IMG/VR virus record: IMGVR_UViG_3300042337_000526
Span: 1 to 64,000 of that record
DNA from: a virus
Length of the DNA stretch: 64,000 bases
Direction: 5' to 3' (one strand)
Below, piece by piece: positions 22,159 through 49,853 of the stretch. Numbering within the stretch: the first letter of the stretch is position 1; the number at the start of each line of letters is the position of its first letter. Both the position numbers and the translations under genes were made by a program. The notes beneath the pieces were generated by a model that was given only the letters and a program-made list of their open reading frames with translations, was not told the DNA's origin and made no database searches.

Positions 22159-22195
22159 CCTCCATTGCTATTTTTGGTGTATATAGTAATGGAGG
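22159..22195 (+). promoter_or_regulatory. RBS-occluding hairpin with TTTTGGTGTA motif in the loop
   Basis: CCTCCATTGCTAT pairs with ATAGTAATGGAGG (13 bp, one G.U), masking the GGAGG SD of the 22203 ORF. Confidence 0.75.
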
Positions 22196-22202
22196 TAATG
22201 CT

Positions 22203-22772: not shown

Positions 22773-23134
22773 TTAGAAAAATTTGTTCATACTGTGGCAA
22801 AAGGAAAAACTGTAAAAGTTTCCCCAAGCATAGTATGTATAAAGATAATCTGGATAGTAGATGTAGAAGTTGTGTTAAGAAACAAACTAAAGTTCGTGGA
22901 AAACTTCACAAAAAAGCCCCTCCTCGCCCAGAGGTATGTGAGTGCTGTAAAAAAGCCCCATTAAAATGGTGCTTGGATCACGATCATTCTGATGATTCTT
23001 TTAGAGGATGGCTCTGTGATAGGTGTAATACTGGCATAGGTAAACTTGATGACAATTTAAACGGTGTAATTAAGGCTGTAAACTATTTAATTATGGCAAA
23101 AAATAGGAAACAGCAAAATGATAACAATCCATAG
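22769..23134 (+). CDS. endonuclease VII-like protein
   Basis: CECC...LDHDH...FRGWLCDRCNTGIG EndoVII motif; N-terminal CxxC pairs. Confidence 0.8.
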   Translation: MIRKICSYCGKRKNCKSFPKHSMYKDNLDSRCRSCVKKQTKVRGKLHKKAPPRPEVCECCKKAPLKWCLDHDHSDDSFRGWLCDRCNTGIGKLDDNLNGVIKAVNYLIMAKNRKQQNDNNP

Positions 23135-23936: not shown

Positions 23937-23939
23937 CAT

Positions 23940-24626
23940 ATGAATATTCCAATATTTTGTATTAATCTTGAACGAGCAACAGAAAGAAAATCTTTAATAC
24001 AGAAAGAATGGATAGATAAACTAAATTTAGATATTGTTTTTTGGAAAGGTTATGATAGAAAAAATATAACAAATAATAAATTTATATATCCATATGATAA
24101 AAAATTAGCAATAAGTTTTATGGGCAGACAACTGAGCGAAGGAGAGATAGCATGTGCTACAAGTTTTTGCCTTCTCTATGAGCACTTATTAGAGAATAAT
24201 TATGAAGAAGTAATTATTATGGAGGATGATATAACTCCATTAATAAAAAACAAAGACGAATTATTTAATACAATATCTGAGGGAAAAAAAGAATTTCCTA
24301 CAGCAGATATGATGCTTTTACACGAATATCCACACGCAAATAAGAAAAAAGTCTATAGTATAAAAAAAGAGATATTTTCAATGTGTGATGAAAGTCCATG
24401 GGGGAATCAATTATTTTATACAAAAAAATTAGCAATATTAGAACTTTATTTATTATTAAGAACCATGTCTATGCCAGCAGACCATCCTCAGAGACAACTT
24501 TCTAGTCAACAAAGAGTGATTATAGTAAACAAAGCATTATGTCATCACGAATGGACTGGGCCAAAATCTACAACATATATTGGTAACGAATACAGAAATT
24601 CAAATAGAAAATTTATTGATAATTAA
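23940..24626 (+). CDS. glycosyltransferase family 25
   Basis: CINLERATERK, LSEGEIAC..S, IMEDD motifs. Confidence 0.85.
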   Translation: MNIPIFCINLERATERKSLIQKEWIDKLNLDIVFWKGYDRKNITNNKFIYPYDKKLAISFMGRQLSEGEIACATSFCLLYEHLLENNYEEVIIMEDDITPLIKNKDELFNTISEGKKEFPTADMMLLHEYPHANKKKVYSIKKEIFSMCDESPWGNQLFYTKKLAILELYLLLRTMSMPADHPQRQLSSQQRVIIVNKALCHHEWTGPKSTTYIGNEYRNSNRKFIDN

Positions 24627-24628
24627 AT

Positions 24629-25474
24629 ATGAATAAAAATATTCTTATCACAGGAGGTGCTGGATTTGTGGGGTCAAATCTTGGAAAAAGATTATATTCT
24701 TTAGGATGTTCTGTAGTGTCTATAGATAATTATTCTACCGGATCAGAAAATAATCACACAGAAGGCATAGAATATATTAAGAATGACATTATATCAACCA
24801 TAGATTACCATAGATATGGTAAGTTTGATGCTATAGTTCATTGTGCAGCAAAGGCCAGGATAAAACAATCTTTTATTGACGATAAAGAATATTTCCATAC
24901 TAACATTCTTGGGACATATAATATTACAAAGTATGCTGCTCAAAATAGTATTCCAATAGTTTATATTGGAACAAGTTCTCATCATAGCGGCAAATTTAGT
25001 AATCCATATACTTTTACGAAAGATGTTGGAGAAGACATAATAAGACTATATCAACAAAATTTTAGTTTATTAGCATCTATTGCTAGATTATATAATGTGT
25101 ATGGACCGAATGAATTGATGGATGATAATGGAACATTAATTGGTAAATGGAAATATAATTATAAAAATAATTTACCTTTTATCATTTATGGTGATGGATC
25201 TAAACGCCGTGACTTTACTCATGTTGATGATGTATGTGATGCAATAATTAAAATTATAATAAATCTCAAATACGGATTTGAATTTGAATTAGGCAGAGGT
25301 GAGAATTATAGCGTATCTGAAGTAGCAGATATGTTTCAATACAATAATATAATATACAAACCAGATTTGGTTGGAGAAGCACCAACTACTCTGGCAGAAA
25401 ATAATGAAACAAAAACCATTTTAAATTGGAATCCAAAAAATAATTTATCAGTATATATAAAAAGCATTAAATAA
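24629..25474 (+). CDS. NAD-dependent epimerase/dehydratase
   Basis: ITGGAGFVGS, YTFTK (YxxxK), RLYNVYGP, RDFTHVDD. Confidence 0.92.
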   Translation: MNKNILITGGAGFVGSNLGKRLYSLGCSVVSIDNYSTGSENNHTEGIEYIKNDIISTIDYHRYGKFDAIVHCAAKARIKQSFIDDKEYFHTNILGTYNITKYAAQNSIPIVYIGTSSHHSGKFSNPYTFTKDVGEDIIRLYQQNFSLLASIARLYNVYGPNELMDDNGTLIGKWKYNYKNNLPFIIYGDGSKRRDFTHVDDVCDAIIKIIINLKYGFEFELGRGENYSVSEVADMFQYNNIIYKPDLVGEAPTTLAENNETKTILNWNPKNNLSVYIKSIK

Positions 25475-25477
25475 TTT

Positions 25478-26155
25478 ATGAAACAATTTTGTAATCTAAT
25501 CTATAATACAAATCCAACTATTTTTCATGCTCATGGAATACCACAAAAATCCCCTTTGTGGCAAAGAATTAAAGATTTATGTAACAACGATGTTTTTATA
25601 CCTCATAATCTACAAATAGTCACATTTAATAATGGATCATCACACTGCAATAAAGATGTCGGGAGTTTAGAGAACTCAATTCAAAATAGATGCACAGTTA
25701 TGGGAGCCGATATAAAAAAATGGAATAATATTCACAAAATATCACTAATAATAGATTACTTAAAGTCGAATCAGACCGATTATGTTCTCAGTATGGATTC
25801 CTCAGATGTTGTTGTTTTTTGTTTGGACGAAATTATAGAAAAGTTTTTATTGAAAAATTGTGATATTCTGTTTAATGCCGAAATAAATTGTTGGCCTAAA
25901 GATTATAGCGATGAAAAAAAATGGTTTCGTGAACCCTTTTGTTATTTAAATGCTGGAGCGTGTATCGGCAAAAAAGAATCAATGCTTAAATTTTATAGCC
26001 AGTGCCTATCTTTTGTAAAGGTCGAAGATTACTCTGAACAAAAAATTGTTAAACAAAATTTTTATAAATGGTACCCTAAAATTTTAATTGACGATAATTG
26101 TAGTATTTTTCAAACACTTAACGGAACAACCGAAGACATATTACATATCCCATGA
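25478..26155 (+). CDS. PLOD-type (procollagen lysyl hydroxylase GT domain-like) glycosyltransferase
   Basis: DSSDV, ILFNAEINCWP, YLNAG..IG, EQ, ID..CSIFQTL. Confidence 0.7.
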   Translation: MKQFCNLIYNTNPTIFHAHGIPQKSPLWQRIKDLCNNDVFIPHNLQIVTFNNGSSHCNKDVGSLENSIQNRCTVMGADIKKWNNIHKISLIIDYLKSNQTDYVLSMDSSDVVVFCLDEIIEKFLLKNCDILFNAEINCWPKDYSDEKKWFREPFCYLNAGACIGKKESMLKFYSQCLSFVKVEDYSEQKIVKQNFYKWYPKILIDDNCSIFQTLNGTTEDILHIP

Positions 26156-26880
26156 TAAATACAGTTTTAGCATCATATTTCTGTTCAACGCCTGATCCTT
26201 TATCCCTTAATGATTATAGAAAACATGTTGTTAGAGATGATCAAAGGATAGATTTTTGGAAAAATGATTATACTCTAATACTTCCACTAATTGATAGTGT
26301 TCTAAAAAATGGATCTAATATTGTTGTATTCCATGATTGTTTTGATAATATTCCGAATATAGATGGTTGTTTATGGGTAAGAATTGAAAACAATGAAAAA
26401 TATACTCCAACAACATATAGATGGTTTGTTTATTATGAGTATTTAAAAAAACATAAATTTTCAAATTTATTTATGGTTGATAGTACCGACGTGCTTATGT
26501 TAAAAAATTATGATATAAAAAATAATACTTTATATTGTGGTAGTGAATATAAAGACAAACTTTTATCTACTTATATGAAAAAAAAATTTAAATATATAAC
26601 CATATCAGATTTTGATGAAGTATTAAATCAATATAGAGATCATACTTTACTAAATGCAGGTGTAGTTGGTGGAGACTATAACATATGTATTAGATTATTA
26701 GAAAAATTAACACAATATCATTCTCAAGTTTCAAAAAATATAAAGATATCTTTAGATATGCCAATTTTTAATTATGTATTATTTAAATATTTTAAAGAGA
26801 ACATTGATTATGGCATTCATATAAATACTAGATTTTGGTGTAATGAATACAATAATATTTCTATTTGGAAACACAAGTGA
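26152..26880 (+). CDS. putative glycosyltransferase (GT-A like)
   Basis: FMVDSTDV (DxxD), LLNAGVVGG, DMPIFN. Confidence 0.55.
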   Translation: MINTVLASYFCSTPDPLSLNDYRKHVVRDDQRIDFWKNDYTLILPLIDSVLKNGSNIVVFHDCFDNIPNIDGCLWVRIENNEKYTPTTYRWFVYYEYLKKHKFSNLFMVDSTDVLMLKNYDIKNNTLYCGSEYKDKLLSTYMKKKFKYITISDFDEVLNQYRDHTLLNAGVVGGDYNICIRLLEKLTQYHSQVSKNIKISLDMPIFNYVLFKYFKENIDYGIHINTRFWCNEYNNISIWKHK

Positions 26881-26916
26881 TCTTATTAAAGAAAAAACTA
26901 ATAGAAAGTTTATTGA

Positions 26917-27630
26917 ATGAAAATAAATATAGTAGTAACCTGTATAGATCATACAGATAATTATAAATACATAAATATGTTAAAATATTGGATATATAAA
27001 TATAATAAATCTAATACAGATGCAAACTTAATAGTTCTATCTGACACAAAAACTGACTTATCATTTTTAGACAAAAAAATTGATTGTATTAGATACGATC
27101 TAGATTATGATAAAGAGTATCAAGAAATTAAAAAAAAATATATATCATGTAACAATAAATGGTATGACCACAATATGGTAATATCAGATATTTTACGGTT
27201 TGGAAAAATGCCAGCAATGTTTCAAAATTTATTAATTATTGATTTAGACGCTATTGTGGAAAAAACAATAAATATTCCTGATGATATCGTATCAAAACCA
27301 ATGGCAGGATGTGATCATGGGGAGTACAGCAAAAAATTAAATGCTGGATTTACATATATTAATACTAATTTAGGGCCCGAACTTTTAAATAAAGTAATTA
27401 ATACCAATTTAAATTATCCTTGGCTTTGTGAGGATCTTATATCTGAGATATGGATCGATAAATATTATCATAAACTACCCCCAGAATATAATTGGTTAGT
27501 AGGCTTATATGGATTTAACCCTAAAGCATATGTTAATCATTATTGGAACCATAGATATCCTAAATTTTTTGCAAAAAAAATGCTAGAATATAAAGTTAAT
27601 AATTTCATAAAAGGAAGTCAAATTATATGA
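26917..27630 (+). CDS. putative glycosyltransferase (GT8/GT34-like)
   Basis: IIDLDA (DxD), LNAGF, PEYNW, HY motifs. Confidence 0.6.
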   Translation: MKINIVVTCIDHTDNYKYINMLKYWIYKYNKSNTDANLIVLSDTKTDLSFLDKKIDCIRYDLDYDKEYQEIKKKYISCNNKWYDHNMVISDILRFGKMPAMFQNLLIIDLDAIVEKTINIPDDIVSKPMAGCDHGEYSKKLNAGFTYINTNLGPELLNKVINTNLNYPWLCEDLISEIWIDKYYHKLPPEYNWLVGLYGFNPKAYVNHYWNHRYPKFFAKKMLEYKVNNFIKGSQII

Positions 27631-28160
27631 GCCGTCTTGAAGAACTTTTAAAATGTAAAAGAATGGATTACGGCTATCCTGTAGACGGTAATTTATTGCA
27701 TGGATTATATGATTTGGTTTGTGATAATATAACAAAAGACAGCACTATAGTAGAGATAGGTAGTTATTCTGGAATTTCGTCAGAATTATTTGCATTATTC
27801 TGTAACAAATTATACTGTGTTGATATTTGGGAGGGTTTCTCCGCACCGGCAGAAAAAACATTTGATGAGCTAATTATTAAATACAACAATATTGTAAAAA
27901 TAAAATTAAATAGTAGCAATGCTGCAAAAATTTTTCAGAATCATTTTATAGACCTAGTATATATTGATGCGGAACATAGTTATCATGCTACTAAAAATTA
28001 TATTCTTTCATGGATGCCAAAGATTAAACCAAATGGAATAATTTCTGGCCATGATTATTATTGGCCAGGAGTAAACCAAGTAGTTAATGAAATATTTTCT
28101 AACAAACAGATTAAAATTTATAAAGATGACTCTTGGCTTGTAAAACTTAATAGCGATTGA
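27627..28160 (+). CDS. class I SAM methyltransferase (Methyltransf_24-like)
   Basis: VEIGSYSG.S, YIDAEHSY, SGHDY. Confidence 0.85.
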   Translation: MSRLEELLKCKRMDYGYPVDGNLLHGLYDLVCDNITKDSTIVEIGSYSGISSELFALFCNKLYCVDIWEGFSAPAEKTFDELIIKYNNIVKIKLNSSNAAKIFQNHFIDLVYIDAEHSYHATKNYILSWMPKIKPNGIISGHDYYWPGVNQVVNEIFSNKQIKIYKDDSWLVKLNSD

Positions 28161-28173
28161 GTCAAGTTTCTGC

Positions 28174-28202
28174 TTGACAACGACGATATTGTATGGTATC
28201 GT
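28174..28202 (+). promoter_or_regulatory. sigma70-type promoter for ligase
   Basis: TTGACA-ACGACGATATTGTATGG-TATCGT. Confidence 0.65.
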
Positions 28203-28230
28203 AGAAGGACACAACAAGGAGAAATTGGGA

Positions 28231-29556
28231 ATGATTCACGATTTTAATTATGTTTGGGGAATGGTTCGTGATCTTAGGGCGACCAGTAGCACTATTGATA
28301 AGGTGGGTATTATTGAGGATTATTGTGCTGGTGGACGATCTGATCCATCTGCTGCTAATTTTACTAAAAAGATTCTACTCTATACTTATCATCCCGCTTG
28401 GCAGTATTTTGTTACGAGTGATAATCTTAAAAAGAAAAGTTCTCTCAGGGGCAAATCTTACAAGAATTTCTTTGATCTTCTGAATGACCTAAAGAATCGT
28501 GTTATAACTGGTCACGATGCTATCGGAGCAATACATACTTTTATCGATTCTTGTTCTGATAAGTCGAACATAGAAGAACTAGTTTACTGCATTATCGACA
28601 AAGATTTAAAAACCCGTGCTGGGGATAAGATTATTAATAAGGCTATTCCCGATCATATTCCAGAGTTTAGTGTTGCTCTTGCTGATAAGTATGAGCCTAA
28701 ACTTGTAGACTGGAAAGACTCTTGGTTTGTCTCACGCAAACTAGACGGATTGAGATTGATTGCTGTTGTTGATGAGAATGGTAACTCCACTTTCTTTTCA
28801 CGAACAGGCAAAGTATTTGATACTCTAGATATTATTTCTGGTGGTATTAAGGCTTTGGGTATTACTAATGTTGTATTTGATGGTGAACTATGTTTGGTAG
28901 ATGATGATGGTAATGAAGATTTTCAGGGCATTATGAAAGAGATTAGAAAGAAAGACCATACTATTCCTAATCCATCATATAAGATGTTCGACATGATTAG
29001 CCATGACGAGTTTTATAGTAAGAAGGGAGAGAAGAATAAGACTTATAGCCACAGATACAATAATCTGAGAGAAGTTATGAAAGAAAATACTTGCGTTTGT
29101 CTTAGCGTATTAGGTCAAGAAAAAATTAAAGATGATGAACATTTTCAAGAATGGGTTAAAAAAGCAGCAGATTATGGCTGGGAAGGAATTATGCTACGAG
29201 CAGATGAGCCATATAAAGGTAAGCGTAGCAAAGATTTGCTAAAAGTTAAGAAATTTTTTGATGACGAATATGAAGTAGTTGATACTGAGATGGGGCCATT
29301 TCGTTATGTTAAAGATGGTGCAGAACATGAGGAGCCTATGCTTTCTTGCGTTATGATTCAGCATAAGGATCATACAGTTAGGGTTGGTAGTGGATTTAGT
29401 ATTGAACAGCGTCAAGAATTCTACAAAAATCCTAAAAAGATTTTGGGTAAACAAATAACTGTACAATATTTTGAAGAGACCAATAACCAAGATGGAGGTA
29501 TCTCTCTTAGATTCCCTACTTTCAAAATTCTGCATGGCAAACGCAGAGACACATAA
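28231..29556 (+). CDS. lig: ATP-dependent DNA ligase
   Basis: SRKLDGLR (motif I), FDGEL, MFDM, EGIMLR, LLKVK, C-terminal OB with SLRFP; ATG 28231 after AAGGAG. Confidence 0.95.
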   Translation: MIHDFNYVWGMVRDLRATSSTIDKVGIIEDYCAGGRSDPSAANFTKKILLYTYHPAWQYFVTSDNLKKKSSLRGKSYKNFFDLLNDLKNRVITGHDAIGAIHTFIDSCSDKSNIEELVYCIIDKDLKTRAGDKIINKAIPDHIPEFSVALADKYEPKLVDWKDSWFVSRKLDGLRLIAVVDENGNSTFFSRTGKVFDTLDIISGGIKALGITNVVFDGELCLVDDDGNEDFQGIMKEIRKKDHTIPNPSYKMFDMISHDEFYSKKGEKNKTYSHRYNNLREVMKENTCVCLSVLGQEKIKDDEHFQEWVKKAADYGWEGIMLRADEPYKGKRSKDLLKVKKFFDDEYEVVDTEMGPFRYVKDGAEHEEPMLSCVMIQHKDHTVRVGSGFSIEQRQEFYKNPKKILGKQITVQYFEETNNQDGGISLRFPTFKILHGKRRDT

Positions 29557-29573
29557 AATTTTAGGTAAAATGT

Positions 29574-31562
29574 ATGGTATTATCTATAGACAATTTTAAT
29601 ATCAACACACATTACGATGTTAAAGATAATCAGATATATAATAATCCAATATTTAAGATCAGTTATTGTATAACTTGTCACAACAGAACATGGCAGTTAA
29701 AACAAACTCTTGCTCATAATATTCTAGGTCTTAAAGACGATGAACAAATTGTTTTAGTTAATTATAGCAGTAACGATGGGCTAGACGAGTTTATAAAAAC
29801 TAATCATATACAAAATATTGTAAACAACAAATTAAAATACATATATGTTTGTGATCAAAATTATTATAATTGCTCAATTGCTAAAAATATTGCTCATTAT
29901 TTTGCAGATAGCGAATATGTAGTTAATTTAGACGGCGATAATTTTATAGATGAATTTAGAGCAACTATTGATTACACTATTGGTAACTTCAAAAATAACT
30001 TTATTCTTCATCTAGCCGTTTTGGAAAAAGATTTTCACGATTCCCATAAACAACTAAAAGGATACGAAGGAAGTTTTGGTAGAATTTGCTGTCATAAAGA
30101 AGATTTTATTTCTCTTGGAGGTTATAATGAAAGTTTTTTGCCAATAGCGTATCAAGATTCAGACTTGCTATTACGAGCAATAGCAAAAAAAATGAACTAT
30201 ATTAATATACCTATTAAAACCAAGTGTTTGAAAAATAATAAGAGCATAACCTATAAAACTAAAAACAACCATCAATATTCATGGATCGATTGTAAAAAAA
30301 TTAACCAATTAATTTCAAATTATAATATCTCTAATAATAAACTAATAGCACCAAACATTATAAAAAATTTTAAGTGCTACTTTAATTTGCATAGTACGCC
30401 CGAAAGAATTACTTATAATAATACCAAGGATATAGTATCTGACTGGCAAATAATAGAGCAAACAGAACATACAGAACCATTAGAAATGCAAAATATTATA
30501 GAATTTTATAAATACAATGTATTAGACCAAGAATTTGATAGTAAATTTTATCAGACAAATTATCCTGAAACGATCAACTACTATCAGCCATTTTGTTTAC
30601 AAAATAACGTACCTGAACAACAAAGATTATTTCATCATTATGTCTTATATGGTAAAAAATCTGGCTATCTCAAAAATTTAAAAGACTTTATTCAACAAAA
30701 TCTTTCTGTATTAGATATGACCAAAATAGATACTGGGGATGTGGATCAAATTTATCCAGTATCCCCCGGTTATGTTGAGCAATATATGATACAAACACAA
30801 AATGGTAAGGACATTGCTGCTAAAAGTAAAATAGGCATAGTTTCCTTGGCGAGAAATTGTTCTAAAAATATTATTAAGTCTATAAAAAATATACAAAAAA
30901 TAATATGTAAAGATTGGAGAATGATAATTTATGAGAATGATTCTATAGATAATACAAAAAATCTTTTACAAAGCGTTGAGGATAATAGAATACATACTAT
31001 TAGTATAGACGATAATAGCTCCTATTTAATAGACAGATCGCAAACTAGAACAAACAATTTGGCAAGATATAGGAATTTCTGCATAGACTGGATTGATAAA
31101 AACTATTCAGATTGTGATTATGTTATTGTTTTAGATTTGGATGCTGATCTTGGTTTTTCTATAGAAGGAATTTATAATAGTATTAGTTGGTTAAGTTCAC
31201 TAGACGATGCTGGTGGCATAGGATCGTACTCGCCTCTTTTGTCTATAGAAAATAGTAAAATTGTATTTGTTCACTATGATTCGTTTGCTGTTAGAATGAA
31301 TGATTGGGAACCCATAGTCAATAACAAAGATATTCATAATCCTTGGTTTAAACACTGGCATCCTGTGGTTGGATCAAATCCTGTGCCTATTTATTCTTGT
31401 TTTGGGGGTTTGGCTGTTTATAAAACAAAAGCATTTCTTAAAGGAAGATACGACGGTAATTTAGGATCAGAACATATTGCATTTCATAAAAGCCTCAGAG
31501 ATGAAGGATATAATATGTACTTAAATCCTAGTAGCCGATTTTTTCTATATACAAATCAATGA
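29574..31562 (+). CDS. multidomain glycosyltransferase (GT2/GT7C-like N-terminus + CAP59-like mannosyltransferase C-terminus)
   Basis: NLDGDN, GGYNESF..YQDSDL; central FD..FY...YP...HY..YG module; LARNC, YENDS, LARYRN, VYSCFGGLAVY, SEH. Confidence 0.75.
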   Translation: MVLSIDNFNINTHYDVKDNQIYNNPIFKISYCITCHNRTWQLKQTLAHNILGLKDDEQIVLVNYSSNDGLDEFIKTNHIQNIVNNKLKYIYVCDQNYYNCSIAKNIAHYFADSEYVVNLDGDNFIDEFRATIDYTIGNFKNNFILHLAVLEKDFHDSHKQLKGYEGSFGRICCHKEDFISLGGYNESFLPIAYQDSDLLLRAIAKKMNYINIPIKTKCLKNNKSITYKTKNNHQYSWIDCKKINQLISNYNISNNKLIAPNIIKNFKCYFNLHSTPERITYNNTKDIVSDWQIIEQTEHTEPLEMQNIIEFYKYNVLDQEFDSKFYQTNYPETINYYQPFCLQNNVPEQQRLFHHYVLYGKKSGYLKNLKDFIQQNLSVLDMTKIDTGDVDQIYPVSPGYVEQYMIQTQNGKDIAAKSKIGIVSLARNCSKNIIKSIKNIQKIICKDWRMIIYENDSIDNTKNLLQSVEDNRIHTISIDDNSSYLIDRSQTRTNNLARYRNFCIDWIDKNYSDCDYVIVLDLDADLGFSIEGIYNSISWLSSLDDAGGIGSYSPLLSIENSKIVFVHYDSFAVRMNDWEPIVNNKDIHNPWFKHWHPVVGSNPVPIYSCFGGLAVYKTKAFLKGRYDGNLGSEHIAFHKSLRDEGYNMYLNPSSRFFLYTNQ

Positions 31563-32296
31563 TAAAAAAATATTTTGTAATATACGGAGAAAGAAACAGT
31601 GGAACTAATTATTTAGAAACCGTTCTGACTGGAAAATCTTATCATTTATCATATACGTCTTCTTGTTTTGAAACTATTGTAATTAATTCATCAATTGCAG
31701 AAATTTATAATGATAAATATGGACACAAACATTTTTTTGGATTTTATGATAAAATAATTAAGAACACAAGCAGTAATATTGTATTCGTTGGAATAGTTAG
31801 AAATCCTTATGATTGGATTATGGCTTTAAATAAATCCAAACACCATATTCCTCCAGACAATCAAAATATTGAAAGTTTTGTAAAAAATGAGTGGTATTCT
31901 ATACAACACAACACAAAACACGTTGACTATGGTAGAGAATTCATGGATGACAGAGATTTTACAACTGGGCATCTTCTTGATAACTTATATGGTTATTCTA
32001 ATCTACCAAAACGTTACAAAAATATATTTGATATGAGAAGTAAAAAACTTAGATATTTATTATATACAATGCCAACACTAGTAACTAATTATGAACTAAT
32101 CAAGTATGAAGATTTTATAATGGATCCTACGAGTATACTTACTGAATGGTCTAAAAAATATAATCTTGAATTAAATTCAACATTCATGCCACCAATTAAA
32201 AAAGAAGCCTATCCAATACCAGAAGAAATTAAAAAAAGTATCAATGAGGGAGTAGACTGGGAAATAGACAATAAATTAGGATACTATATTAAGTAG
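31559..32296 (+). CDS. sulfotransferase-like protein
   Basis: GERNSGTNYL (5'-PSB loop-like), KH, VRNPYDW, YEDF. Confidence 0.65.
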   Translation: MIKKYFVIYGERNSGTNYLETVLTGKSYHLSYTSSCFETIVINSSIAEIYNDKYGHKHFFGFYDKIIKNTSSNIVFVGIVRNPYDWIMALNKSKHHIPPDNQNIESFVKNEWYSIQHNTKHVDYGREFMDDRDFTTGHLLDNLYGYSNLPKRYKNIFDMRSKKLRYLLYTMPTLVTNYELIKYEDFIMDPTSILTEWSKKYNLELNSTFMPPIKKEAYPIPEEIKKSINEGVDWEIDNKLGYYIK

Positions 32297-39339: not shown

Positions 39340-42000
39340 ATGAAGTTGGCAGATCGCGTTATTGAGACTCATAGTGCTGGTGTTCGTAGCGAGTCTGGTT
39401 TTACAATCGCTCAGACTAGCAAAATGTTTAAAATCCTTTCGGACTCTCTTTATTCCGATAAGGTGATGGCAGTTATTCGTGAACTGTCTACTAATGCTTA
39501 TGATAGTCATATTAGTGCTGGTAATAAGAATCCCTTCAAGGTGATCTTGCCAACATCTGCTAATCCTTCTTTTACCGTGCGTGATTATGGCACTGGTCTT
39601 AGTCAGGGAGATATGGAGAACCTGTATACAACTTACGGTGCTTCTAATAAGAATGATAGCAACGATTTTGTAGGTTGTCTTGGTCTTGGTAGCAAGAGTC
39701 CGTTTGCTTATACCAAGAGTTTTACCACCAGTTCTTATTTTAATGGAACTAAGTATACTTATATCGCCGCTATTGATGACAGCGGTGTTCCTACTCTGAA
39801 TCTTTTTAATACTTGTGAAACTGATGAGGCTAATGGTCTTGAAATCAGTTTTGCTGTTAAGAACCATGATTTTAGTGAGTTTACCAATAAGGCTATCAGG
39901 ATTTTCCATTATTTCCGAATGAAACCTATTATTGAGGGTGGACTTGGAGATAATCTGCAAGATCATAAGTATAGCAATACTAATATTGTGATCAGCGGTA
40001 ATGGCTGGAGAGTTTGCAGACTTAATAACGATACTCAGTATTATCCTAATAATTATCATCGTATTGATAGTGGTGTTGTTGCTATCATGGGAAATATTGC
40101 ATATCCTGTTCAGACCGCTCAGATTATTGGTCAGGAAAAGGAAGATCAACCAGATCATATTGCCAAGTGGAATAGGGCTTTCCAGAAAGCCGATATTGAT
40201 TCGTGGAAGAGTTTCGTTACTGAGATCATTAACTCTGGTCTTTATCTGGAACTTGATTTTGGTATTGGCGAACTGGAAATGGACGTTTCCCGTGAAGGTT
40301 TGCAGTATACTAAGAGCGTTATTAAAACTCTGCGTCAAAAGACTCAAGAGATTTATCTTGAGATGAAGGATGAATTTAGTAAGAAGATTTCTGCTGCTAA
40401 GACCAAGATTGAGGCTATCACAACATATTATCAGATGAATGAATTGTCTGGTGGATGGGGTGTTGGTGCATCTTGGACTGACCCTAATGGTAAGAGCCAC
40501 AATATTAATAGTGGTGCTGACCTTGAATATAAAATCAAGGCTGGCAAGAACCTGTACGTTTTTAATTACAAGAGCAGCGGGTATCGTTCACGACGCCTTA
40601 TTTCTCTAACAGACAAAATCCATCATGATACTCTTACTGGTAAGGGATATTCTTACTGGAATAGTCAGAAGAAGAATGGGAAAATTGCTTTTTTTGTTTG
40701 TGACGTTAAGGGTGAAGAAACTGCCAAGAAGATTGTGACACGTTATTGTAATCAAAATGATTGTTTTGCTTACATGATTATGGACACAAAGGATCATACT
40801 CAAAGCGACAAGGGTTTTGATGATCTGATTAATGATGTCGGTAGTGAGAATCTGCTCAAGGTTTCTGATTATAAACATCTTACTCAAAGTTCTGGCCCTC
40901 GTAAAAGTGGAGTCAGAAATAGTAATGGTAGTGTGAGCGATCAAGATATATTCTTTATTCATGGTCAGTCTAAGGATTCTGGTAAACTTAGTGTCGAATA
41001 TAACGATGCTCTTAGTTTGAAAACTCTTACAAGTGACGAACTAGACGAATTGAGTGATAGTGATTCTATCATTTATGTTCCTATTCTTCGTTATCAAAGC
41101 ACACCAGAGTTTCCTAAGATTAATAATATTGTATCGCTATTTGATAATGAGAATATCAAGGGACTATTTGGAGATGTGAAGGTTTATGCTATCAAGAGCA
41201 ATTTTGTAGCAAAAATGACCAGTGAAGGACACAATCTTGTTGACTTTAATACTTGGTTTAAAAAGATTCTCTCAACAAAGATTAAGAGTTATTTTAACAA
41301 TACCAATGAGTACAACTCTATTGTTGAATTCTACAAAAAGGAATTTATCAGTAAGGATGGTGATAACGATAATTATTATTACAATCATGGAACATTGGTT
41401 AGTCAGTTCTCTTGTCATATGTTGAGTATTTTTGGTCTTGAATATAAGAAATATATCAAGAATACTGAACTATCCAATATTATTGATAGTTTTCTTGTAA
41501 TGGAATTCTTTGCCGATACTATGCACAGAGCAACTTTTGATCTGAAACGATTCTCTCAGACTGAATATTTTGACCATATCAACTCTTTGCTCAAGGATCG
41601 AGGTATTGATCATCTTGATAGTAAGGAACTCAAGAAGAAAAATGTACAATATAACACTCTTATAAATATTCAACATCAGATGTTTGACCATTCTGATGAT
41701 ATTGAGGGATATACTAAATTGTTTAAGTCTGATGCTAAAGCAATCAAGTATAATTTGACCAAAGCGGCAGACTTGAAGAAAATTCTTAAAGTCGAGGTTG
41801 ACAAGAACCCGATGCTGAAGTATATTATGGGAAGCAACCAGATTAATGGCAATCTTAGAGATTTGGACAGCAAGTATAATCCTATCTCTCAATTTGCTGA
41901 TAATTATTATGGTAAGAGAAATAATGCTGTATGGGTTGAGAGTATGGATAGCGACAAGGTTGAATTGTTTAAGATTCAGTTGAGTAGTTTGATCAAGTAA
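39340..42000 (+). CDS. rIIA: rIIA-like protein (N-terminal GHKL ATPase)
   Basis: LSDSLYSDK.AVIRELSTNAYD, VRDYGTG, GCLGLGSKSPFAY; adjacent to rIIB-like gene. Confidence 0.85.
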   Translation: MKLADRVIETHSAGVRSESGFTIAQTSKMFKILSDSLYSDKVMAVIRELSTNAYDSHISAGNKNPFKVILPTSANPSFTVRDYGTGLSQGDMENLYTTYGASNKNDSNDFVGCLGLGSKSPFAYTKSFTTSSYFNGTKYTYIAAIDDSGVPTLNLFNTCETDEANGLEISFAVKNHDFSEFTNKAIRIFHYFRMKPIIEGGLGDNLQDHKYSNTNIVISGNGWRVCRLNNDTQYYPNNYHRIDSGVVAIMGNIAYPVQTAQIIGQEKEDQPDHIAKWNRAFQKADIDSWKSFVTEIINSGLYLELDFGIGELEMDVSREGLQYTKSVIKTLRQKTQEIYLEMKDEFSKKISAAKTKIEAITTYYQMNELSGGWGVGASWTDPNGKSHNINSGADLEYKIKAGKNLYVFNYKSSGYRSRRLISLTDKIHHDTLTGKGYSYWNSQKKNGKIAFFVCDVKGEETAKKIVTRYCNQNDCFAYMIMDTKDHTQSDKGFDDLINDVGSENLLKVSDYKHLTQSSGPRKSGVRNSNGSVSDQDIFFIHGQSKDSGKLSVEYNDALSLKTLTSDELDELSDSDSIIYVPILRYQSTPEFPKINNIVSLFDNENIKGLFGDVKVYAIKSNFVAKMTSEGHNLVDFNTWFKKILSTKIKSYFNNTNEYNSIVEFYKKEFISKDGDNDNYYYNHGTLVSQFSCHMLSIFGLEYKKYIKNTELSNIIDSFLVMEFFADTMHRATFDLKRFSQTEYFDHINSLLKDRGIDHLDSKELKKKNVQYNTLINIQHQMFDHSDDIEGYTKLFKSDAKAIKYNLTKAADLKKILKVEVDKNPMLKYIMGSNQINGNLRDLDSKYNPISQFADNYYGKRNNAVWVESMDSDKVELFKIQLSSLIK

Positions 42001-42036: not shown

Positions 42037-42897
42037 ATGAGTGTTCCGTTTATGTTTGTCGATGGTAATCTGACAGTTGTGCTGAACAACAAGAGTTTTC
42101 AAGTTCTGCCTGACCACCTTAACTACAAGATGATTCTGGAGGCATTGCCTACTGCAACATCTGACGAGTTGATTGAAATGATTGATATTGAGAAGGCGGT
42201 TGCTACTTTTAGTGACGGTCTTGTTGAGATCAAGAATGGTCAGGTAACTTATGAGGGTGAGGTTGTTCATGGGTCGATTAGCAAGAGAATTCTGGAGTTT
42301 ATGAGCAAGGGTCTGCCTTTTCAGCCTCTTGTTAATTTCCTGAATAATCTTATGGGTAATCCTAGTATGCAAAGTCAAAAGGAACTCTATGATTTCCTTG
42401 AGCATGAGCATCTGCCCATTACTGAGGATGGTTATTTCCTTGCTTATAAGGCAGTCAGAGCAGATTACATGGACAAATATCGCGGAGTATTTGATAATCA
42501 TGTTGGTAATGTTTGTGAAATGACCCGATCAAAGGTTGATGATGATCGTGGCCGAGGTTGCTCTAATGGGCTTCATGCTGGTGCATTGAATTATGTGGCC
42601 GGTTATGGCAGTCTTGAAAATGGCGATAAGATCGTTATCGTTAAGATTAATCCTGCTGATGTTGTGAGTGTTCCTAGTGATTGTAACTATGAGAAACTTC
42701 GCACTTGCCGATATGAAGTTGTCGGAGAGTATCAAGGCGAACTTCTCAAGCCTCTTTATTCATCTGTCTTTAGTGAGGATGATTACGAGGATGAGGATGA
42801 AGATTATGATAATGATTATGATTGGGGATGGAATGAGGATGATGACGAAGAGGCTTATGCTGAAGATGATGAGGAAGATTACGACGATTATAACTGA
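42037..42897 (+). CDS. rIIB: rIIB-like protein
   Basis: LYDFL...PIT.DG.FLAYK.V..DY.D, VDDD....CS.GLH, VKINP.DVVSVP.D...KLRTCRYEVVGE. Confidence 0.88.
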   Translation: MSVPFMFVDGNLTVVLNNKSFQVLPDHLNYKMILEALPTATSDELIEMIDIEKAVATFSDGLVEIKNGQVTYEGEVVHGSISKRILEFMSKGLPFQPLVNFLNNLMGNPSMQSQKELYDFLEHEHLPITEDGYFLAYKAVRADYMDKYRGVFDNHVGNVCEMTRSKVDDDRGRGCSNGLHAGALNYVAGYGSLENGDKIVIVKINPADVVSVPSDCNYEKLRTCRYEVVGEYQGELLKPLYSSVFSEDDYEDEDEDYDNDYDWGWNEDDDEEAYAEDDEEDYDDYN

Positions 42898-45120: not shown

Positions 45121-45493
45121 GACTGATGCCTCTTTTAAATATCAGTGTCCTTCAGAAGATTGTAATAATAAACATTGGCTATTTATAAGACAGGCTCAGG
45201 TTAAAAACTTTAAGATAGTCTGTGAGTGTGGTTTGGTTTTCAAGCCAAAACAGATAAAACATATTAAAATAATTTACGAAAAGCCCAAAAGGAAACGAAA
45301 GACATCAGAAGATATTGTTGATAGTATTCCTGTTGACCTTTTGAATCAATGTGCTAAAGTTCTGTCTGGCTATGGATTTGATTTGGACGAGTCTAAAGAA
45401 TTAATTAAGCAATCATATAATTCTTGCAAGACTAATGATATTGGATCTTTAATTAAAAACGCTTTAAAATCTTTTGGAGAAAAAAATGGCTAA
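45083..45493 (+). CDS. Zn-ribbon + RuvA C-terminal domain (domain III)-like fusion
   Basis: CPSEDC...CECG N-terminus; C-terminal QCAKVLSGYGF..DESKELI...SLIKNALKS matches RuvA_C pattern A..AL..LGY...EA...V....LIR.AL. Confidence 0.65.
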   Translation: MIKTNLKSQKPIETDASFKYQCPSEDCNNKHWLFIRQAQVKNFKIVCECGLVFKPKQIKHIKIIYEKPKRKRKTSEDIVDSIPVDLLNQCAKVLSGYGFDLDESKELIKQSYNSCKTNDIGSLIKNALKSFGEKNG

Positions 45494-46397
45494 AGGTATT
45501 CGACCATCAACTTTTGACGAGATCATTGGACAGGATAATGTCAAAGAGCGTCTACGAGTCTCTGTGAGGGGTTGTAAAAACACAGGCACGGTGATGCCTC
45601 ACGTTTTAATAGACGGCCCTCCTGGCCTTGGAAAGACCACCATAGCGAGTGCCATAGCCAACGAGTTGGGGGTGAACCTTTATACCACCAATGCGGCAAA
45701 CATACGCAGCATCAAAAATATACTTCCGTATATTATGGGTATTGAGCCAAGATCAGTTTTGTTCATTGATGAAATCCACAGATTGCCTAAGATTGTGGAA
45801 GAATTTCTATATCCGATCATGGAAGATTTTGTTCTTAATATTACTGTTAAGAATGACGAAGATAAAGATGTTCCAGAAACTATTGATCTGCCAGTATTTA
45901 CTGTGGTTGGGGCCACAACTAGTGGCGGAAGTTTAAGTCAACCCTTTTATGATCGTTTCTGCATTAAAGAACATTTATCTTTTTATAATACTGATGATCT
46001 AGCTAAACTAGCAAGGTTGAACTCGTCTAAATTAGGGGTAGTCATAGAGGATTGCGACCTCTTGGAGATTGCTAAACGAAGCAAAGGAACTCCACGAATT
46101 CTAAATGCTAGATTGCAGTGGTATAAGAACTATATGTCTTGTAATCCTGATAAGGTTATTTCTATAGATGAGATATTTAATGTTCAAGGTATTGATCATA
46201 ATGGTCTTGATATTTATGACAGGTTATATATTGATATCTTGAAAAAGAGTAAAGGATCCCCACTTGGATTAAAAGCAATATCATCAATGACAGGCATCGC
46301 CATTGAAACCATTGAGAATAGTATTGAGCCTTTTCTTGTTAGACGAGGATATGTAATCAGAACCCAAAAGGGAAGAGTCTTAGGATCTCAACCATAA
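45486..46397 (+). CDS. ruvB: Holliday junction branch-migration ATPase RuvB
   Basis: RP.TFDEIIGQ, GPPGLGKTT, FIDEIHRL, GATT...L..PF.DRF, RSKGTPRI, IEPFL...RT.KGR. Confidence 0.93.
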   Translation: MAKGIRPSTFDEIIGQDNVKERLRVSVRGCKNTGTVMPHVLIDGPPGLGKTTIASAIANELGVNLYTTNAANIRSIKNILPYIMGIEPRSVLFIDEIHRLPKIVEEFLYPIMEDFVLNITVKNDEDKDVPETIDLPVFTVVGATTSGGSLSQPFYDRFCIKEHLSFYNTDDLAKLARLNSSKLGVVIEDCDLLEIAKRSKGTPRILNARLQWYKNYMSCNPDKVISIDEIFNVQGIDHNGLDIYDRLYIDILKKSKGSPLGLKAISSMTGIAIETIENSIEPFLVRRGYVIRTQKGRVLGSQP

Positions 46398-46434: not shown

Positions 46435-46460
46435 AAAGGGGCCTTTTTGGCCCCTTTTTT
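46435..46460 (+). terminator. intrinsic terminator
   Basis: AAAGGGGCC-TTTTT-GGCCCCTTT followed by T tract. Confidence 0.88.
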
Positions 46461-46471
46461 ATTGGCATGGT

Positions 46472-46477
46472 GGTGTA
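46472..46477 (+). promoter_or_regulatory. GGTGTA putative late-promoter motif
   Basis: just after terminator and 20 nt before ATG 46498; the same motif precedes several other genes. Confidence 0.5.
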
Positions 46478-46497
46478 AATCTACTTTAGAGGAAACT

Positions 46498-46812
46498 ATG
46501 GTAGATACTATACGCATACTATTGATCGTATTAATACTATTAAATATAGTATTTTTCTTTTTGGGATACTCTATTGGCCGATTAAATAATAGTCAGGCCA
46601 ATATTGAGAGTCAGCCAGTTTCTTTTTTTGGCAAACAAAAGTTAGTATCTGATGACAAAATAACAAATAAAGTTACTATTGATGAGAGCAAATTTGTAAC
46701 AGATATTAAAACGTCTGGCATGGAGAAAAAATACGAAAATCTTGGTGAAACTAAAATTTCTACTGAAAATATAGAATCTTCAATCAATAAACTAAAAAAT
46801 ATAAAGAGGTAA
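46498..46812 (+). CDS. single-pass membrane protein
   Basis: ATG 46498 after GAGG; TM ILLIVLILLNIVFFFLGYSIG; charged C-terminus. Confidence 0.75.
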   Translation: MVDTIRILLIVLILLNIVFFFLGYSIGRLNNSQANIESQPVSFFGKQKLVSDDKITNKVTIDESKFVTDIKTSGMEKKYENLGETKISTENIESSINKLKNIKR

Positions 46813-46815
46813 ATT

Positions 46816-47817
46816 ATGAGTAAAGGTTTAGATGTTGGAACTAGTTATATTGTTTTATCTCAAGATTCTAAAGATGGCATCGTCTATAAAGATTTTAGGG
46901 ATGCTTTCTATATTATAAAACCAACTACTCCTGTTGCAACCAAAATGATTGAAAAAGGACTATCGGGAAAAGTTTTTGTTAAGGATGCAGACGGATCATT
47001 TTTAATTTTAGGTAAGGATGCCATAGAAAAAGCCATTGAACGTAACGACAACGCTAAAAGACCCATGAGCAAAGGCGTTGTGTCTGCTAAAGAGAAGGAC
47101 GCAAAGCGTGTGCTGGCTTTCATTTTAAAAGAAGTGGCTGGTCAGGCATCAGAACTAAATGAAAAACTGGTATTCTGCGTACCCGCACAGCCTGTTGATC
47201 AAGAAGATGAGGATTTTGACGTTGGATATCATGAAGATGTAGTCAAGGCCATTTTGGGTGAATGTGGATATGATGCTAAAGCCATTAATGAGGCTGAAGC
47301 TTTATGCTATGCTGAATTGGGTGATGAAGATTATACTGGTATTGCCGTATCATGTGGTGCAGGAATGACTAATGTTTGTGTTATGTTGAATGGTGAACCA
47401 ACGGTGGTATTTAGTACAACAAAGTCGGGCGATTGGGTAGATCGTATGAGTGCTGTTGCAACAGGAGAAAAGGATAGTGTTGTTCAAGCCGAAAAAGAAG
47501 GTGGTGGATTTACAATTGGCGAACATAGTGATAATCCTGTTTTATCTGCTGTATCTTCATATTATGAAAGATTAATTGATTATACTACTAAACAATTAAC
47601 AGCAGCATTATCTGATCATAAAGCACTACCAAAATTTAAAAGCCCATTAACCGTTGTTGTTGCTGGTGGAACTTCTCAAGCAAAGGGTTATGTTGAGAAT
47701 TTTACTAAAAAACTATCAGAAAATAATTTTCCTTTACAGGTTAAGGTAGTCAAGCACGCCTCAGACCCCTTACATGCGGTTTCTAAAGGTTGTTTAATAG
47801 CAGCAAAAGTTCTTTAA
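46816..47817 (+). CDS. actin-fold ATPase, volactin-like
   Basis: GLDVGT (phosphate 1), INEAEA (connect 1), SCGAGMTNV (phosphate 2), GDWVD, VAGGTS (adenosine), AVSKG (connect 2). Confidence 0.85.
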   Translation: MSKGLDVGTSYIVLSQDSKDGIVYKDFRDAFYIIKPTTPVATKMIEKGLSGKVFVKDADGSFLILGKDAIEKAIERNDNAKRPMSKGVVSAKEKDAKRVLAFILKEVAGQASELNEKLVFCVPAQPVDQEDEDFDVGYHEDVVKAILGECGYDAKAINEAEALCYAELGDEDYTGIAVSCGAGMTNVCVMLNGEPTVVFSTTKSGDWVDRMSAVATGEKDSVVQAEKEGGGFTIGEHSDNPVLSAVSSYYERLIDYTTKQLTAALSDHKALPKFKSPLTVVVAGGTSQAKGYVENFTKKLSENNFPLQVKVVKHASDPLHAVSKGCLIAAKVL

Positions 47818-47829
47818 GGATTATTTAAA

Positions 47830-48036
47830 ATGATTCCGAATAAAAAAATAAAATCAGATTGTTTTAAATGTACACAAGGACCAACACCAACACCAACAAG
47901 AACTCCTAGACCAACAATTACTCCTAGCAGAACGCCAAAACCAACAATTACTCCTAGTAGAACAAATAGGCTTATTACTCCAACACCAAGTTCTAGCTAT
48001 AATATAAAAATAAAAACTTTAAATTTCATACCATAG
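47830..48036 (+). CDS. short Thr/Pro-rich protein with KIKSDC motif
   Basis: ORF track; shares N-terminal motif with downstream large ORFs. Confidence 0.6.
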   Translation: MIPNKKIKSDCFKCTQGPTPTPTRTPRPTITPSRTPKPTITPSRTNRLITPTPSSSYNIKIKTLNFIP

Positions 48037-48077: not shown

Positions 48078-49853
48078 ATGAAAATAAAATCAGATTGTTG
48101 TGGTGGAAAATGGGTAGTCAATAAAACACCAACACCAACCCAAACACCCAAACAAACAGTAACACCAAGCATAACAGTTACAGCAACGCCATCGTCAATA
48201 AGCGGTGACACTCCTACTCCAACGCCAAGCATAACAGTTACAGCAACGCCATCATCAACAAGCGGCGACACTCCTACTCCAACGCCAAGCATAACAGTCA
48301 CAGCAACGCCATCGTCAACAAGCGGCGACACTCCTACTCCAACGCCAAGCATAACAGCCACAGCAACGCCATCATCAACAAGCGGTGACACTCCTACTCC
48401 AACGCCAACGATAGGCAGTACTCAAACACCAACCAGAACAACAACCAACACTAACACACCCACCAAAACAATCATAAACACAAAAACGCCAACACCAAGT
48501 GTCACGCCAAGCATTAGTTTAAGCCCTACTGTTACTCCCACTATAACAAACACGCCCACTATAACGGTTAGTATTAGTCCAACAAAGAGTACTACTCCAA
48601 GCGTAACTCCAACGGTCACTACTACGGTAACAAACACCCCAACAGTAACTCCAACCATAACATCGAATTTTGCGCAACCAATAAACATAAAATGCATAAC
48701 CGATATGGGCAAGCAGTGGGGAATAACCTATAATGTAAGAGATTATTCTGTTGTGTATGGGCTAGATTCTGGAGCACAATGGAGAAACATAGCTTCTGAA
48801 GAATATCCTTATTCAATAGTTCAAACAGAAACAACCATAAAAAACTCAATTGATTTTGAAATAAATGAACCATTAATGATATTTGTCGCACAGACCACAA
48901 GTTCTTCTGATGGCATAACTGATAATTACATATTAAAACAAAAAACAATTAATAAAAATAATAAAAACATATTAGTTTTAGATTGTATAGATAAAAATAA
49001 AACACAAATTGAAAAATCAGATAAATTTAATTCTAAATATGCTCCTGCTAATTTTAATGTTTTAGTATATGGTTCTATGTGTGTTGTAGATTGGTCCTAT
49101 CCAATTGAAGCACCTAGTCGATTTGATACACCTAACTTGTATAGGCTGAATATGTCTAGCACAAATGATCTTTCAAAGATAAAACAAATCGACTCGTGGC
49201 TAACTGGAGATTTTGATCTAGAAAATAGTTTTATTATTAAACCGGGTGGTGGAGGTTTGAGCGTTCTTACATCGTTTACTGTTTTTTGTAAAAGGCCTGA
49301 TTATAATCCTAAAGCGTCTTTTATAACTGTGTTTGCAGACTATAATAGGCCTGTTGATTTAAACATACAAGATCCTTGGGATATGAATAATAATAATGGC
49401 AAAATTTGGCCTGCGGGGTCTTATGCTATTATATGGGGCGATAGTTCACCTTATGATACTGTATCAACGATTGCCCCAAAATTGACAACGGCCCCACTTA
49501 CATCGTACGATGGCAGGATTAGGATGGTGTGGAATGGATCATCATACAGAGTTGCTCAAATGATAAACATAAATGGAGTATGTTTAGATAATGATTTTAA
49601 TTATTATAGAATTGGAATGTATAAATATAATGCAAGTACTATGGAATATGATTTTTATAAAGCTGTTAAAATTAGAAAAACAGTATTAAATCAGATTTAT
49701 AGCTATGAATTTGACAACATTCTTAACGGACTTTATAAGGTGTATGTCTTTGCAGACTATAGCGTGGATGATGGTGCGTTTGGTGATAATATTGATCCAT
49801 TTTCAATAACATCTACCATAGCTTCTAATGTTTTTATTTATTCAGTAATATAA
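48078..49853 (+). CDS. Thr/Pro/Ser-rich (mucin-like) putative virion surface protein
   Basis: KIKSDCC N-terminus, about 190-aa T/P tract, beta-rich C-terminus. Confidence 0.75.
   Translation: MKIKSDCCGGKWVVNKTPTPTQTPKQTVTPSITVTATPSSISGDTPTPTPSITVTATPSSTSGDTPTPTPSITVTATPSSTSGDTPTPTPSITATATPSSTSGDTPTPTPTIGSTQTPTRTTTNTNTPTKTIINTKTPTPSVTPSISLSPTVTPTITNTPTITVSISPTKSTTPSVTPTVTTTVTNTPTVTPTITSNFAQPINIKCITDMGKQWGITYNVRDYSVVYGLDSGAQWRNIASEEYPYSIVQTETTIKNSIDFEINEPLMIFVAQTTSSSDGITDNYILKQKTINKNNKNILVLDCIDKNKTQIEKSDKFNSKYAPANFNVLVYGSMCVVDWSYPIEAPSRFDTPNLYRLNMSSTNDLSKIKQIDSWLTGDFDLENSFIIKPGGGGLSVLTSFTVFCKRPDYNPKASFITVFADYNRPVDLNIQDPWDMNNNNGKIWPAGSYAIIWGDSSPYDTVSTIAPKLTTAPLTSYDGRIRMVWNGSSYRVAQMININGVCLDNDFNYYRIGMYKYNASTMEYDFYKAVKIRKTVLNQIYSYEFDNILNGLYKVYVFADYSVDDGAFGDNIDPFSITSTIASNVFIYSVI
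48162..48407 (+). repeat. in-frame tandem repeat, 60 bp x4
   Basis: unit encodes TPSITVTATPSSTSGDTPTP. Confidence 0.9.

Follow-up and report, generated by a model that had tools for sequence, protein, structure and literature searches.

A volactin-family actin and a predicted membrane-anchored adaptor form a two-gene cassette in uncultured lake phages

Introduction

What is known of phage cytoskeletons comes mostly from tubulins of the PhuZ/TubZ type and from AlpC, the actin of a single prophage. In this study, we describe a two-gene cassette from a phage DNA stretch of 64,000 nt (positions 1 to 64,000 of the IMG/VR record IMGVR_UViG_3300042337_000526; the whole stretch is referred to here as the window), which encodes a 333-aa actin-like protein of the volactin family and, directly upstream of it, a 104-aa protein that we regard as its predicted membrane-anchored adaptor. 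The volactin of Haloferax (VolA, HVO_2015) assembles into dynamic filaments, which span the cytoplasm and contact the membrane with their tips (PMC10869688), and its gene adjoins HVO_2016, which encodes a CdpA-like protein with four transmembrane segments (PMC12126565). The Haloferax and the phage actin match the same Pfam family over its full length, and in both layouts a gene for a membrane protein, in the phage a predicted one, lies beside that of the actin. However, one system is found in an archaeon and the other in a bacteriophage, the four-segment CdpA-like partner differs from the single-pass partner of 104 aa, and the phage actins fall into a well-supported clade of their own, apart from the sampled cellular ones.

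The second system to be compared is the AlpC–AlpA pair of the Corynebacterium glutamicum prophage CGP3, whose filaments take phage DNA to the membrane, efficient phage replication depending on them (PMC4446434). It shares with the cassette the phage-borne actin-like protein and the small adaptor co-transcribed upstream of it; however, AlpA binds DNA and recognizes repeats in its own promoter, whereas the adaptor described here is a predicted membrane protein with no DNA-binding part and no such repeats. AlpC moreover belongs to a different actin family, and no relationship to it was found in Pfam or BFVD searches. RodZ binds MreB via an N-terminal helix-turn-helix domain. Unlike RodZ, the adaptor would bind its actin via a C-terminal helix, although in MreB–RodZ, too, a single-pass membrane protein ties a cytoplasmic actin to the envelope (PDB 2wus is among the structural matches of the actin model). 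An elongasome context was not seen: there is no mreC, mreD or rodZ nearby, the neighbours being RuvB, the adaptor and Thr/Pro-rich giant proteins. The PhuZ/TubZ tubulins, which belong to a different protein superfamily from volactin, are phage-encoded cytoskeletal polymers of phages above 200 kb (PMC8314001, PMC7950403). A complete relative of the window phage in IMG/VR (G001; 243,821 bp with direct terminal repeats) gave no tubulin-family match, and therefore the actin would be its only recognizable cytoskeletal polymer, if it polymerizes.

In the literature searched, we found nothing on phages or Planctomycetota in work on volactin, only AlpC and ParM-type plasmid prophages in work on phage actins, and no description of membrane-tethered volactin filaments built by a phage. 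What appears to be new here, judged from sequence, is a module of volactin-family actin and adaptor that is phage-borne and whose adaptor is membrane-anchored.

Results

The actin and its family

An initial annotation, made from the letters of the window, had pointed to a 333-aa open reading frame (ORF) with the motifs of the actin fold and had noted a likeness to volactin rather than to MreB, ParM or FtsA. The ORF is present with the quoted motifs (Table 1), and the likeness was borne out by profile searches. Pfam PF25216 (Volactin) matched the protein with an E-value of 4.2e-64 and 217.5 bits (cut-off 35) over its full length, residues 1–330 covering profile positions 1–321 of 321, and full-length matches were likewise obtained in related phage records. 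MreB_Mbl (PF06723) reached 26.1 bits, below its cut-off of 27, with residues 59–209 only, and Salactin (PF25229) reached 22.1 bits, below its cut-off of 27.1, with the C-terminal third only; no ParM/StbA, FtsA or eukaryotic-actin family was returned by the Pfam search at E<=0.1, and PHROGs contained no family for the actin. By these matches, the protein belongs to the volactin family and not to MreB, ParM or FtsA.

The ATP-site residues D6, G8, T9, E159, G181, G183, D206, D209, G284, G285 and T286 are kept in 69 diverse relatives, all but T9 and T286 being invariant, so that the phosphate-1, phosphate-2, catalytic and adenosine sites show little or no variation. An AlphaFold2 (AF2) model of the actin had a predicted local distance difference test score (pLDDT) of 97.4. 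There is no solved structure of a volactin-family protein, and the closest solved folds were MreB/Mbl, MamK (TM-score 0.73) and BeeR (TM-score 0.72), at an identity of 15–20%. Among the viral structures of BFVD nothing close was found, the best matches being mostly Hsp70-like. These Hsp70-like matches, together with the presence of EutJ at rank 21 of the structural matches (TMq 0.56), would fit a non-polymerizing ATPase of the acetate and sugar kinase/Hsp70/actin (ASKHA) group, chaperone- or EutJ-like, with the adaptor tail as its client or regulator and the pair acting as a membrane-bound, ATP-driven chaperone or gate. We consider this highly improbable: MreB, MamK and BeeR take up the first 20 ranks of the structural comparison, the family profile matched only filament formers in the PDB (MamK 1e-16, BeeR 1e-11, MreB 1e-9, FtsA 3e-6), with no Hsp70, EutJ or sugar kinase at E 1e-3 and no ParM- or Alp-type match, and the founding member of the family polymerizes in vivo (PMC10869688). 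Because the family profile matches only filament-forming actins in the PDB, the objection raised with the initial annotation, that the protein might cluster with non-polymerizing ASKHA enzymes, falls away. Based on its family and its predicted fold, the actin would polymerize into filaments.

The adaptor protein

The single-pass membrane protein that had been claimed to lie just before the actin is encoded by a gene of 104 codons with a hydrophobic stretch at residues 4–26. Its ATG start at 46498 is credible, being preceded by a GAGG ribosome site, and a longer TTG start at 46447 falls inside a terminator. No Pfam or PHROG family matched the adaptor. Its architecture is constant across homologues (alignment A2) and consists of a short acidic N-terminus, the transmembrane helix with an immediate K/R, a variable low-complexity tether and a 48-residue module with the consensus I.IDD.K.V.DIKT..LEKKYD.LGE.K.S.ENI..SINKLKN.K; the window adaptor ends in SINKLKNIKR. 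Within the tail, I92, K98 and K103 vary hardly at all in A2, and L99 is invariant. AF2 predicted a transmembrane helix at residues 2–33 (pLDDT >90), disorder at 34–91 and a second helix at 92–103.

In 47 non-redundant homologues, the N-terminal flank of the transmembrane helix carries on average 0.09 K+R and 0.87 D+E, and the 15 residues past the helix carry 2.26 K+R, from which an N-out/C-in topology is predicted by the positive-inside rule. Furthermore, two loci (L070:3884-4993 and L073:3884-4993) encode a 370-aa protein in which a signal peptide and a trypsin domain (Pfam Trypsin at residues 49–243) are followed by a transmembrane helix and the adaptor tail module. The DNA is identical in the two assemblies and represents one phage lineage. 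Since the fused trypsin domain is N-terminal of the transmembrane helix and must be exported, the tail module would be cytoplasmic.

Linkage of adaptor and actin

The adaptor gene ends with TAA at 46810–46812 and the actin ATG follows at 46816, the actin ribosome-binding site (RBS) lying inside the last adaptor codons, and on this reading of the sequence the two genes are translationally coupled. An adaptor homologue was found in 78 of the first 80 loci. In 95 loci, an ORF of 60 aa or more runs up to the actin start, and in about 90 of these it encodes a single-pass protein of the adaptor type, the gap being 0–8 nt. The conservation of the anchor gene beside the actin, on which the initial annotation had made its proposal depend, was thus found. 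Across 80 IMG/VR loci, identity is 82–95% for the actin and 36–85% for the adaptor, which is thus much the less conserved of the two. The pair is kept despite differing flanks, with proteases on both sides in L086 and L099 and with RuvB and a thioredoxin-like gene in L100 and L101. In one locus (L048), a GIY-YIG-like homing endonuclease gene is inserted between adaptor and actin.

In 74 of 108 phage loci, a gene for a secreted trypsin-like protease lies no more than 5 kb from the actin, though none is found in the 64-kb window, and a subtilase and an exported thioredoxin-like protein are further frequent neighbours. The protease neighbours and the protease–partner fusion invite the speculation of a tie to envelope remodelling.

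A tail shared with other partners of volactin-family actins

A similar tail ends the gene directly upstream of a volactin-family actin in four other settings. The first is a second jumbo-phage clade with a 443-aa actin (loci L108–L112, tail ..SDKLDKLRKLKGNG), whose partner is soluble, is 176–194 aa long and is itself preceded by a multi-transmembrane protein of about 150 aa with hydrophobic helices. The second is the huge phage LR745208 (tail ..DAMGALKAVRKKS), the third a Planctomycetia metagenome-assembled genome (MAG) with two tandem actin paralogues (tail ..STVERLKQIKQQ), and the fourth at least 22 of 30 Planctomycetota loci when a strict pattern is applied (for example ..SLNKLKSLKGDD). Besides the window adaptor with its SINKLKNIKR, the tail ..L.KLK.L.. 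is present in L108–L112, L081 and L114.

In the Planctomycetota module, the actin belongs to the same family and the partner, with its aligning tail, is again directly upstream. However, the planctomycete partners are longer (230–450 aa) and have no transmembrane helix. They combine a long coiled coil with an N-terminal domain conserved as ELAKRGxRKVKVL, whereas in the phage partner the tail module is all that is retained, placed behind a membrane helix. These partners match no Pfam family, and no description of the module (loci L118–L147 and L114) was found in the literature searched. The planctomycete tail ..ESNLxxVxVKxxKAGGVxxxLxKLKxLxxG aligns with the phage tail ..LEKKYDxLGExKxSxENIxxSINKLKNxK, and a comparison of the two C-termini with hhalign gave 32 columns at an E-value of 0.002. 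When a hidden Markov model (HMM) of the planctomycete tail was run against 1626 ORFs, comprising all ORFs of the window and of nine phage or MAG loci, three partner ORFs ranked 1–3 (E 0.018–0.037), and in the reverse search the top five among 1619 ORFs were all partner ORFs. Each of these scores is marginal by itself, but the ranks together with the fixed position at the gene end upstream of an actin are hard to explain by chance.

Complex prediction

The actin modelled with adaptor residues 50–104 gave a complex score of 0.54 (best control 0.02), which has to be read against a calibration in which 58 out of 80 solved complexes attained the mark, as did 2 out of 110 mismatched pairs, and in which the range up to 0.60 held only 7 of the 80 solved complexes along with both mismatches that passed. 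The three runs had at least 61% of contacts in common, and the partner pLDDT was at least 51. The prediction weakly supports docking of the tail on the actin.

A small protein with an N-terminal anchor and a charged C-terminal part is typical of phage lysis genes, which counts for an explanation in which the actin forms filaments and the small membrane protein is unrelated to it, sharing its transcript as a spanin-, holin- or antiholin-like lysis component or as an exclusion protein. It would also fit the presence of rIIA and rIIB 4 kb upstream, the lack of a family match that would name the adaptor, the weak complex prediction and the toleration, in L007–L009, of 4.4 kb inserted between the pair. 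We nevertheless think this explanation unlikely, since the pair stays constant while its flanks change, the adaptor stop and the actin start are coupled, the conserved part of the adaptor is predicted to be cytoplasmic, unlike that of an i-spanin or antiholin, and the same tail ends upstream genes of non-phage Planctomycetota, where there is no lysis context. A spanin or holin identity of the adaptor was rejected on the basis of the predicted topology and of the tail common to the cellular partners.

Distribution and phylogeny of the actin

A word-based search of proteins clustered at 90% identity returned 1758 relatives at E<=1e-5, the best 120 of them at 83–98% identity, and clustering at 50% gave 912 family clusters at E<=1e-3, of which 268 reached E<=1e-30. 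In IMG/VR, close relatives occur at no fewer than 295 loci, on contigs of up to 244 kb, and the carriers are abundant uncultured freshwater phages of about 150–245 kb. The 443-aa actins (L108–L113) are encoded on contigs of 196–298 kb; their N-terminus is extended by a basic stretch of about 110 aa with a likeness to the N-terminal motif of the planctomycete partner (..LRELHEKGVV..IRVI..). Relatives at 33–35% identity are encoded by two published huge phages, LR745208 (485 kb) and LR756511 (595 kb).

Among 14 control genomes, the PF25216 cut-off was passed in one, that of Haloferax, and among 301 sampled Planctomycetota genomes a PF25216 actin was present in 112, with 258–320 bits. The Planctomycetota actins often occur as two tandem paralogues, and one of the L114 paralogues bears a zinc ribbon at its N-terminus. 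A FastTree phylogeny was rooted on Escherichia coli MreB; in it, the clade of the window actin and that of the 443-aa actins are contained in a well-supported group of 29 rows, which is apart from the main Planctomycetota clade, and the two huge phages are placed elsewhere; most of the remaining rows are metagenomic without an assigned origin, including most of the 86 'REP' rows. P0148, which had been guessed to be haloarchaeal from its acidity, matched one Planctomycetia MAG instead when scanned. The actin of 'Candidatus Uab amorphum' (PMC6906331) was dismissed as a relevant relative, since it is a different, eukaryote-like actin. Several family members of about 700 aa (P0122, P0131, P0149, P0153 and others) match the actin in two stretches split near residues 180–205, as would be expected if an intein or other insert lay in the phosphate-2 region.

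The promoter-like element and the question of timing

The initial annotation had placed a terminator and a GGTGTA motif ahead of the cassette, and both are found there (Table 1). After RuvB, the order is intrinsic terminator, GGTGTAAAT, RBS, the 104-aa ORF, TAA plus 3 bases and the 333-aa ORF. Counts of GGTGTAWWW or GGTGTAAA in the window alone showed no enrichment (5 copies of the motif found against 6 expected). Across loci, GGTGTA(A/T)(A/T)(A/T) stands 20–30 nt before the adaptor ATG in all 16 related loci having a spacer, and in the complete genome of G001, 14 of 29 copies fall into intergenic DNA, which makes up 6.5% of the genome (P = 7e-10), these copies being 12–50 nt ahead of a gene on the same strand. 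Because it is kept before the adaptor ATG and enriched between genes in the complete relative, the motif is very probably a phage-specific promoter element. A second copy in the window, GGTGTATAT, is situated 27 nt ahead of a glycosyltransferase–endonuclease VII–ligase operon (22176–32296).

The cassette had also been proposed to act late in infection. This part of the proposal was not supported, because the genes behind the motif in PHROG searches are PhoH-like genes, HNH endonuclease genes, a secreted protease gene and unassigned ones, with no recognizable virion gene among them, and because in many relatives the cassette reads on from ruvB with no spacer.

The phage and the neighbourhood of the cassette

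The coordinates of the features are collected in Table 1.

Table 1. Features of the cassette and of its surroundings in the window
Feature	Position	Strand	Basis
rIIA	39340-42000		
rIIB	42037-42897		
RuvB	45474-46397		
Intrinsic terminator closing the ruvB unit, 9-bp G+C-rich stem and T run	46435-46457	+	Inverted repeat re-found in repeat search (I7)
GGTGTAAAT, promoter-like element, 26 nt before adaptor start codon	46472-46480	+	Conservation across loci
RBS of adaptor, AGAGGA	46488-46493	+	Read from sequence
Adaptor ('anchor') gene, 104 aa (predicted)	46498-46812	+	ATG start; sequence, alignment, AF2
Predicted adaptor transmembrane helix, residues 4-26	46507-46575	+	Hydropathy
Conserved adaptor module, residues 57-104, predicted cytoplasmic	46666-46809	+	Alignment A2, AF2
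Terminal helix, residues 92-103, proposed actin-docking tail	46771-46806	+	AF2
AAGAGG, RBS of actin gene inside last adaptor codons	46804-46809	+	Read from sequence
Volactin-family actin-like ATPase (predicted), 333 aa	46816-47817	+	Pfam, alignment, AF2 model

The phage origin of the window is shown by rIIA, rIIB, ligase and RuvB in Pfam and PHROG searches, and nearly all of its genes are on the + strand; an ATP-dependent DNA ligase, an endonuclease and two tRNAs are also encoded. No cultured phage is similar to the region at the DNA level, and a search with rIIA returned distant matches only (29–36% identity), because of which host assignment was not possible. Near-identical DNA is present in at least 20 lake-water sequencing runs from 2020–2024, and the source is an uncultured lake jumbo phage.

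The cassette adjoins replication and recombination genes, namely a primase-like gene, RuvB and mini-RuvA, and rIIA and rIIB are about 4 kb upstream. The first of these neighbourhoods, and the resemblance of an actin with a small upstream adaptor to the AlpA–AlpC layout of CGP3 (PMC4446434), would be in keeping with a ParMRC- or AlpAC-like function in the partition or positioning of phage DNA, such as during a carrier or pseudolysogenic state, with an adaptor that links DNA, and not the membrane alone, to the filament. That the cassette serves such a purpose seems very unlikely to us. The adaptor, composed of a transmembrane helix, a low-complexity tether and a short tail, has neither a DNA-binding domain nor a basic DNA-binding region, no iterated centromere-like repeats are present next to the cassette, there is no ParM/StbA family match, and lysogeny genes were not noticed in the window in a search that was not exhaustive.

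Thr/Pro-rich giant proteins are encoded directly downstream of the actin with no terminator in between, in line with the large-surface-protein region that the initial annotation had seen there. A 68-aa ORF just after the actin (window 47830–48036) repeats the N-terminal leader of the next giant protein (48078–48100), with the 19-nt segment AAAATAAAATCAGATTGTT occurring unchanged at 47845 and at 48081, and this ORF seems to be a shortened duplicate of the start of the Thr/Pro-rich protein. The long operon at 22176–32296 encodes endonuclease VII, DNA ligase, several glycosyltransferases (GT25, GT2 and PLOD-type) and an NAD-dependent sugar epimerase/dehydratase. Considered along with the giant Thr/Pro-rich proteins, the operon suggests O-glycosylated, mucin-like phage surface proteins.

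Discussion

We propose, with a probability of roughly 0.6, that the cassette is a phage-borne module of adaptor and volactin that tethers dynamic filaments to the inner membrane. According to this model, both genes would be transcribed from one phage-specific promoter-like element, and because of this single element and the translational coupling, adaptor and actin would be made together. The 333-aa protein would bind and hydrolyse ATP and polymerize into dynamic filaments like its Haloferax relative. The 104-aa adaptor would be inserted into the inner membrane of the host with its short N-terminus outside, and its C-terminal part of about 75 residues would be cytoplasmic and end in the helix ..SINKLKNIKR, which may dock on the actin. 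The outcome would be actin filaments bound to the inner membrane through flexible tethers. As to their purpose, our preferred guess is that the filaments organize the envelope or the interior of the infected cell, for instance by keeping the places of phage replication or assembly at the membrane or by setting exported phage enzymes in position across it. The initial annotation had proposed a membrane-tethered filament system acting late in infection in positioning, assembly or a change of host shape, of which the phage-encoded, volactin-like actin and the dedicated membrane partner stand and the late timing does not.

The proposal is drawn from the behaviour of the family in Haloferax, the predicted fold, the synteny, the shared tail and the weak complex prediction, and several points weigh against it. 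Polymerization and binding are derived from family membership and prediction, and the complex prediction is a weak pass. The likeness between phage and planctomycete tails is short (32 columns), with an hhalign probability of 13.7% and single HMM E-values of 0.02–4, and the window adaptor ranked only tenth of the 1626 ORFs in the search with the planctomycete-tail HMM. In L007–L009 the adaptor is split from the actin by 4.4 kb of other genes, and the gene upstream of the actin in LR756511 shows neither a clear tail nor a membrane helix. The 4.4-kb block of L007–L009 contains sugar-modification-like genes, partly on the opposite strand.

Since the planctomycete tail is found on long coiled-coil proteins with no membrane helix, a membrane anchor may have taken the place of the adaptor's cargo end in the phage. 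A wider and more doubtful idea, which we put forward tentatively, is that the tail is a portable filament-docking tag of an ancient and widespread two-gene module, present in Planctomycetota as well as several clades of jumbo phages and perhaps also haloarchaea, and that it was refitted with a membrane helix by the lake phages, whose actin filaments would position things across the inner membrane. If this were true, the protease fusion and the exported protease and thioredoxin-like neighbours would be explained by an actin track that places envelope-remodelling enzymes, and the cassette would be a viral analogue of MreB–RodZ.

The work on Haloferax asked for 'unknown volactin-binding factors' (PMC10869688). 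The shared adaptor tail described here is a testable candidate for such a factor, and a 17-residue peptide together with the 333-aa protein would make an easy biochemical test system. Planctomycetota are bacteria of unusual cell biology and are without FtsZ. The volactin family is common among them, and in phages the tethered filaments that we propose would, by means of an actin of this recently defined family, add a third type to the phage cytoskeletons.

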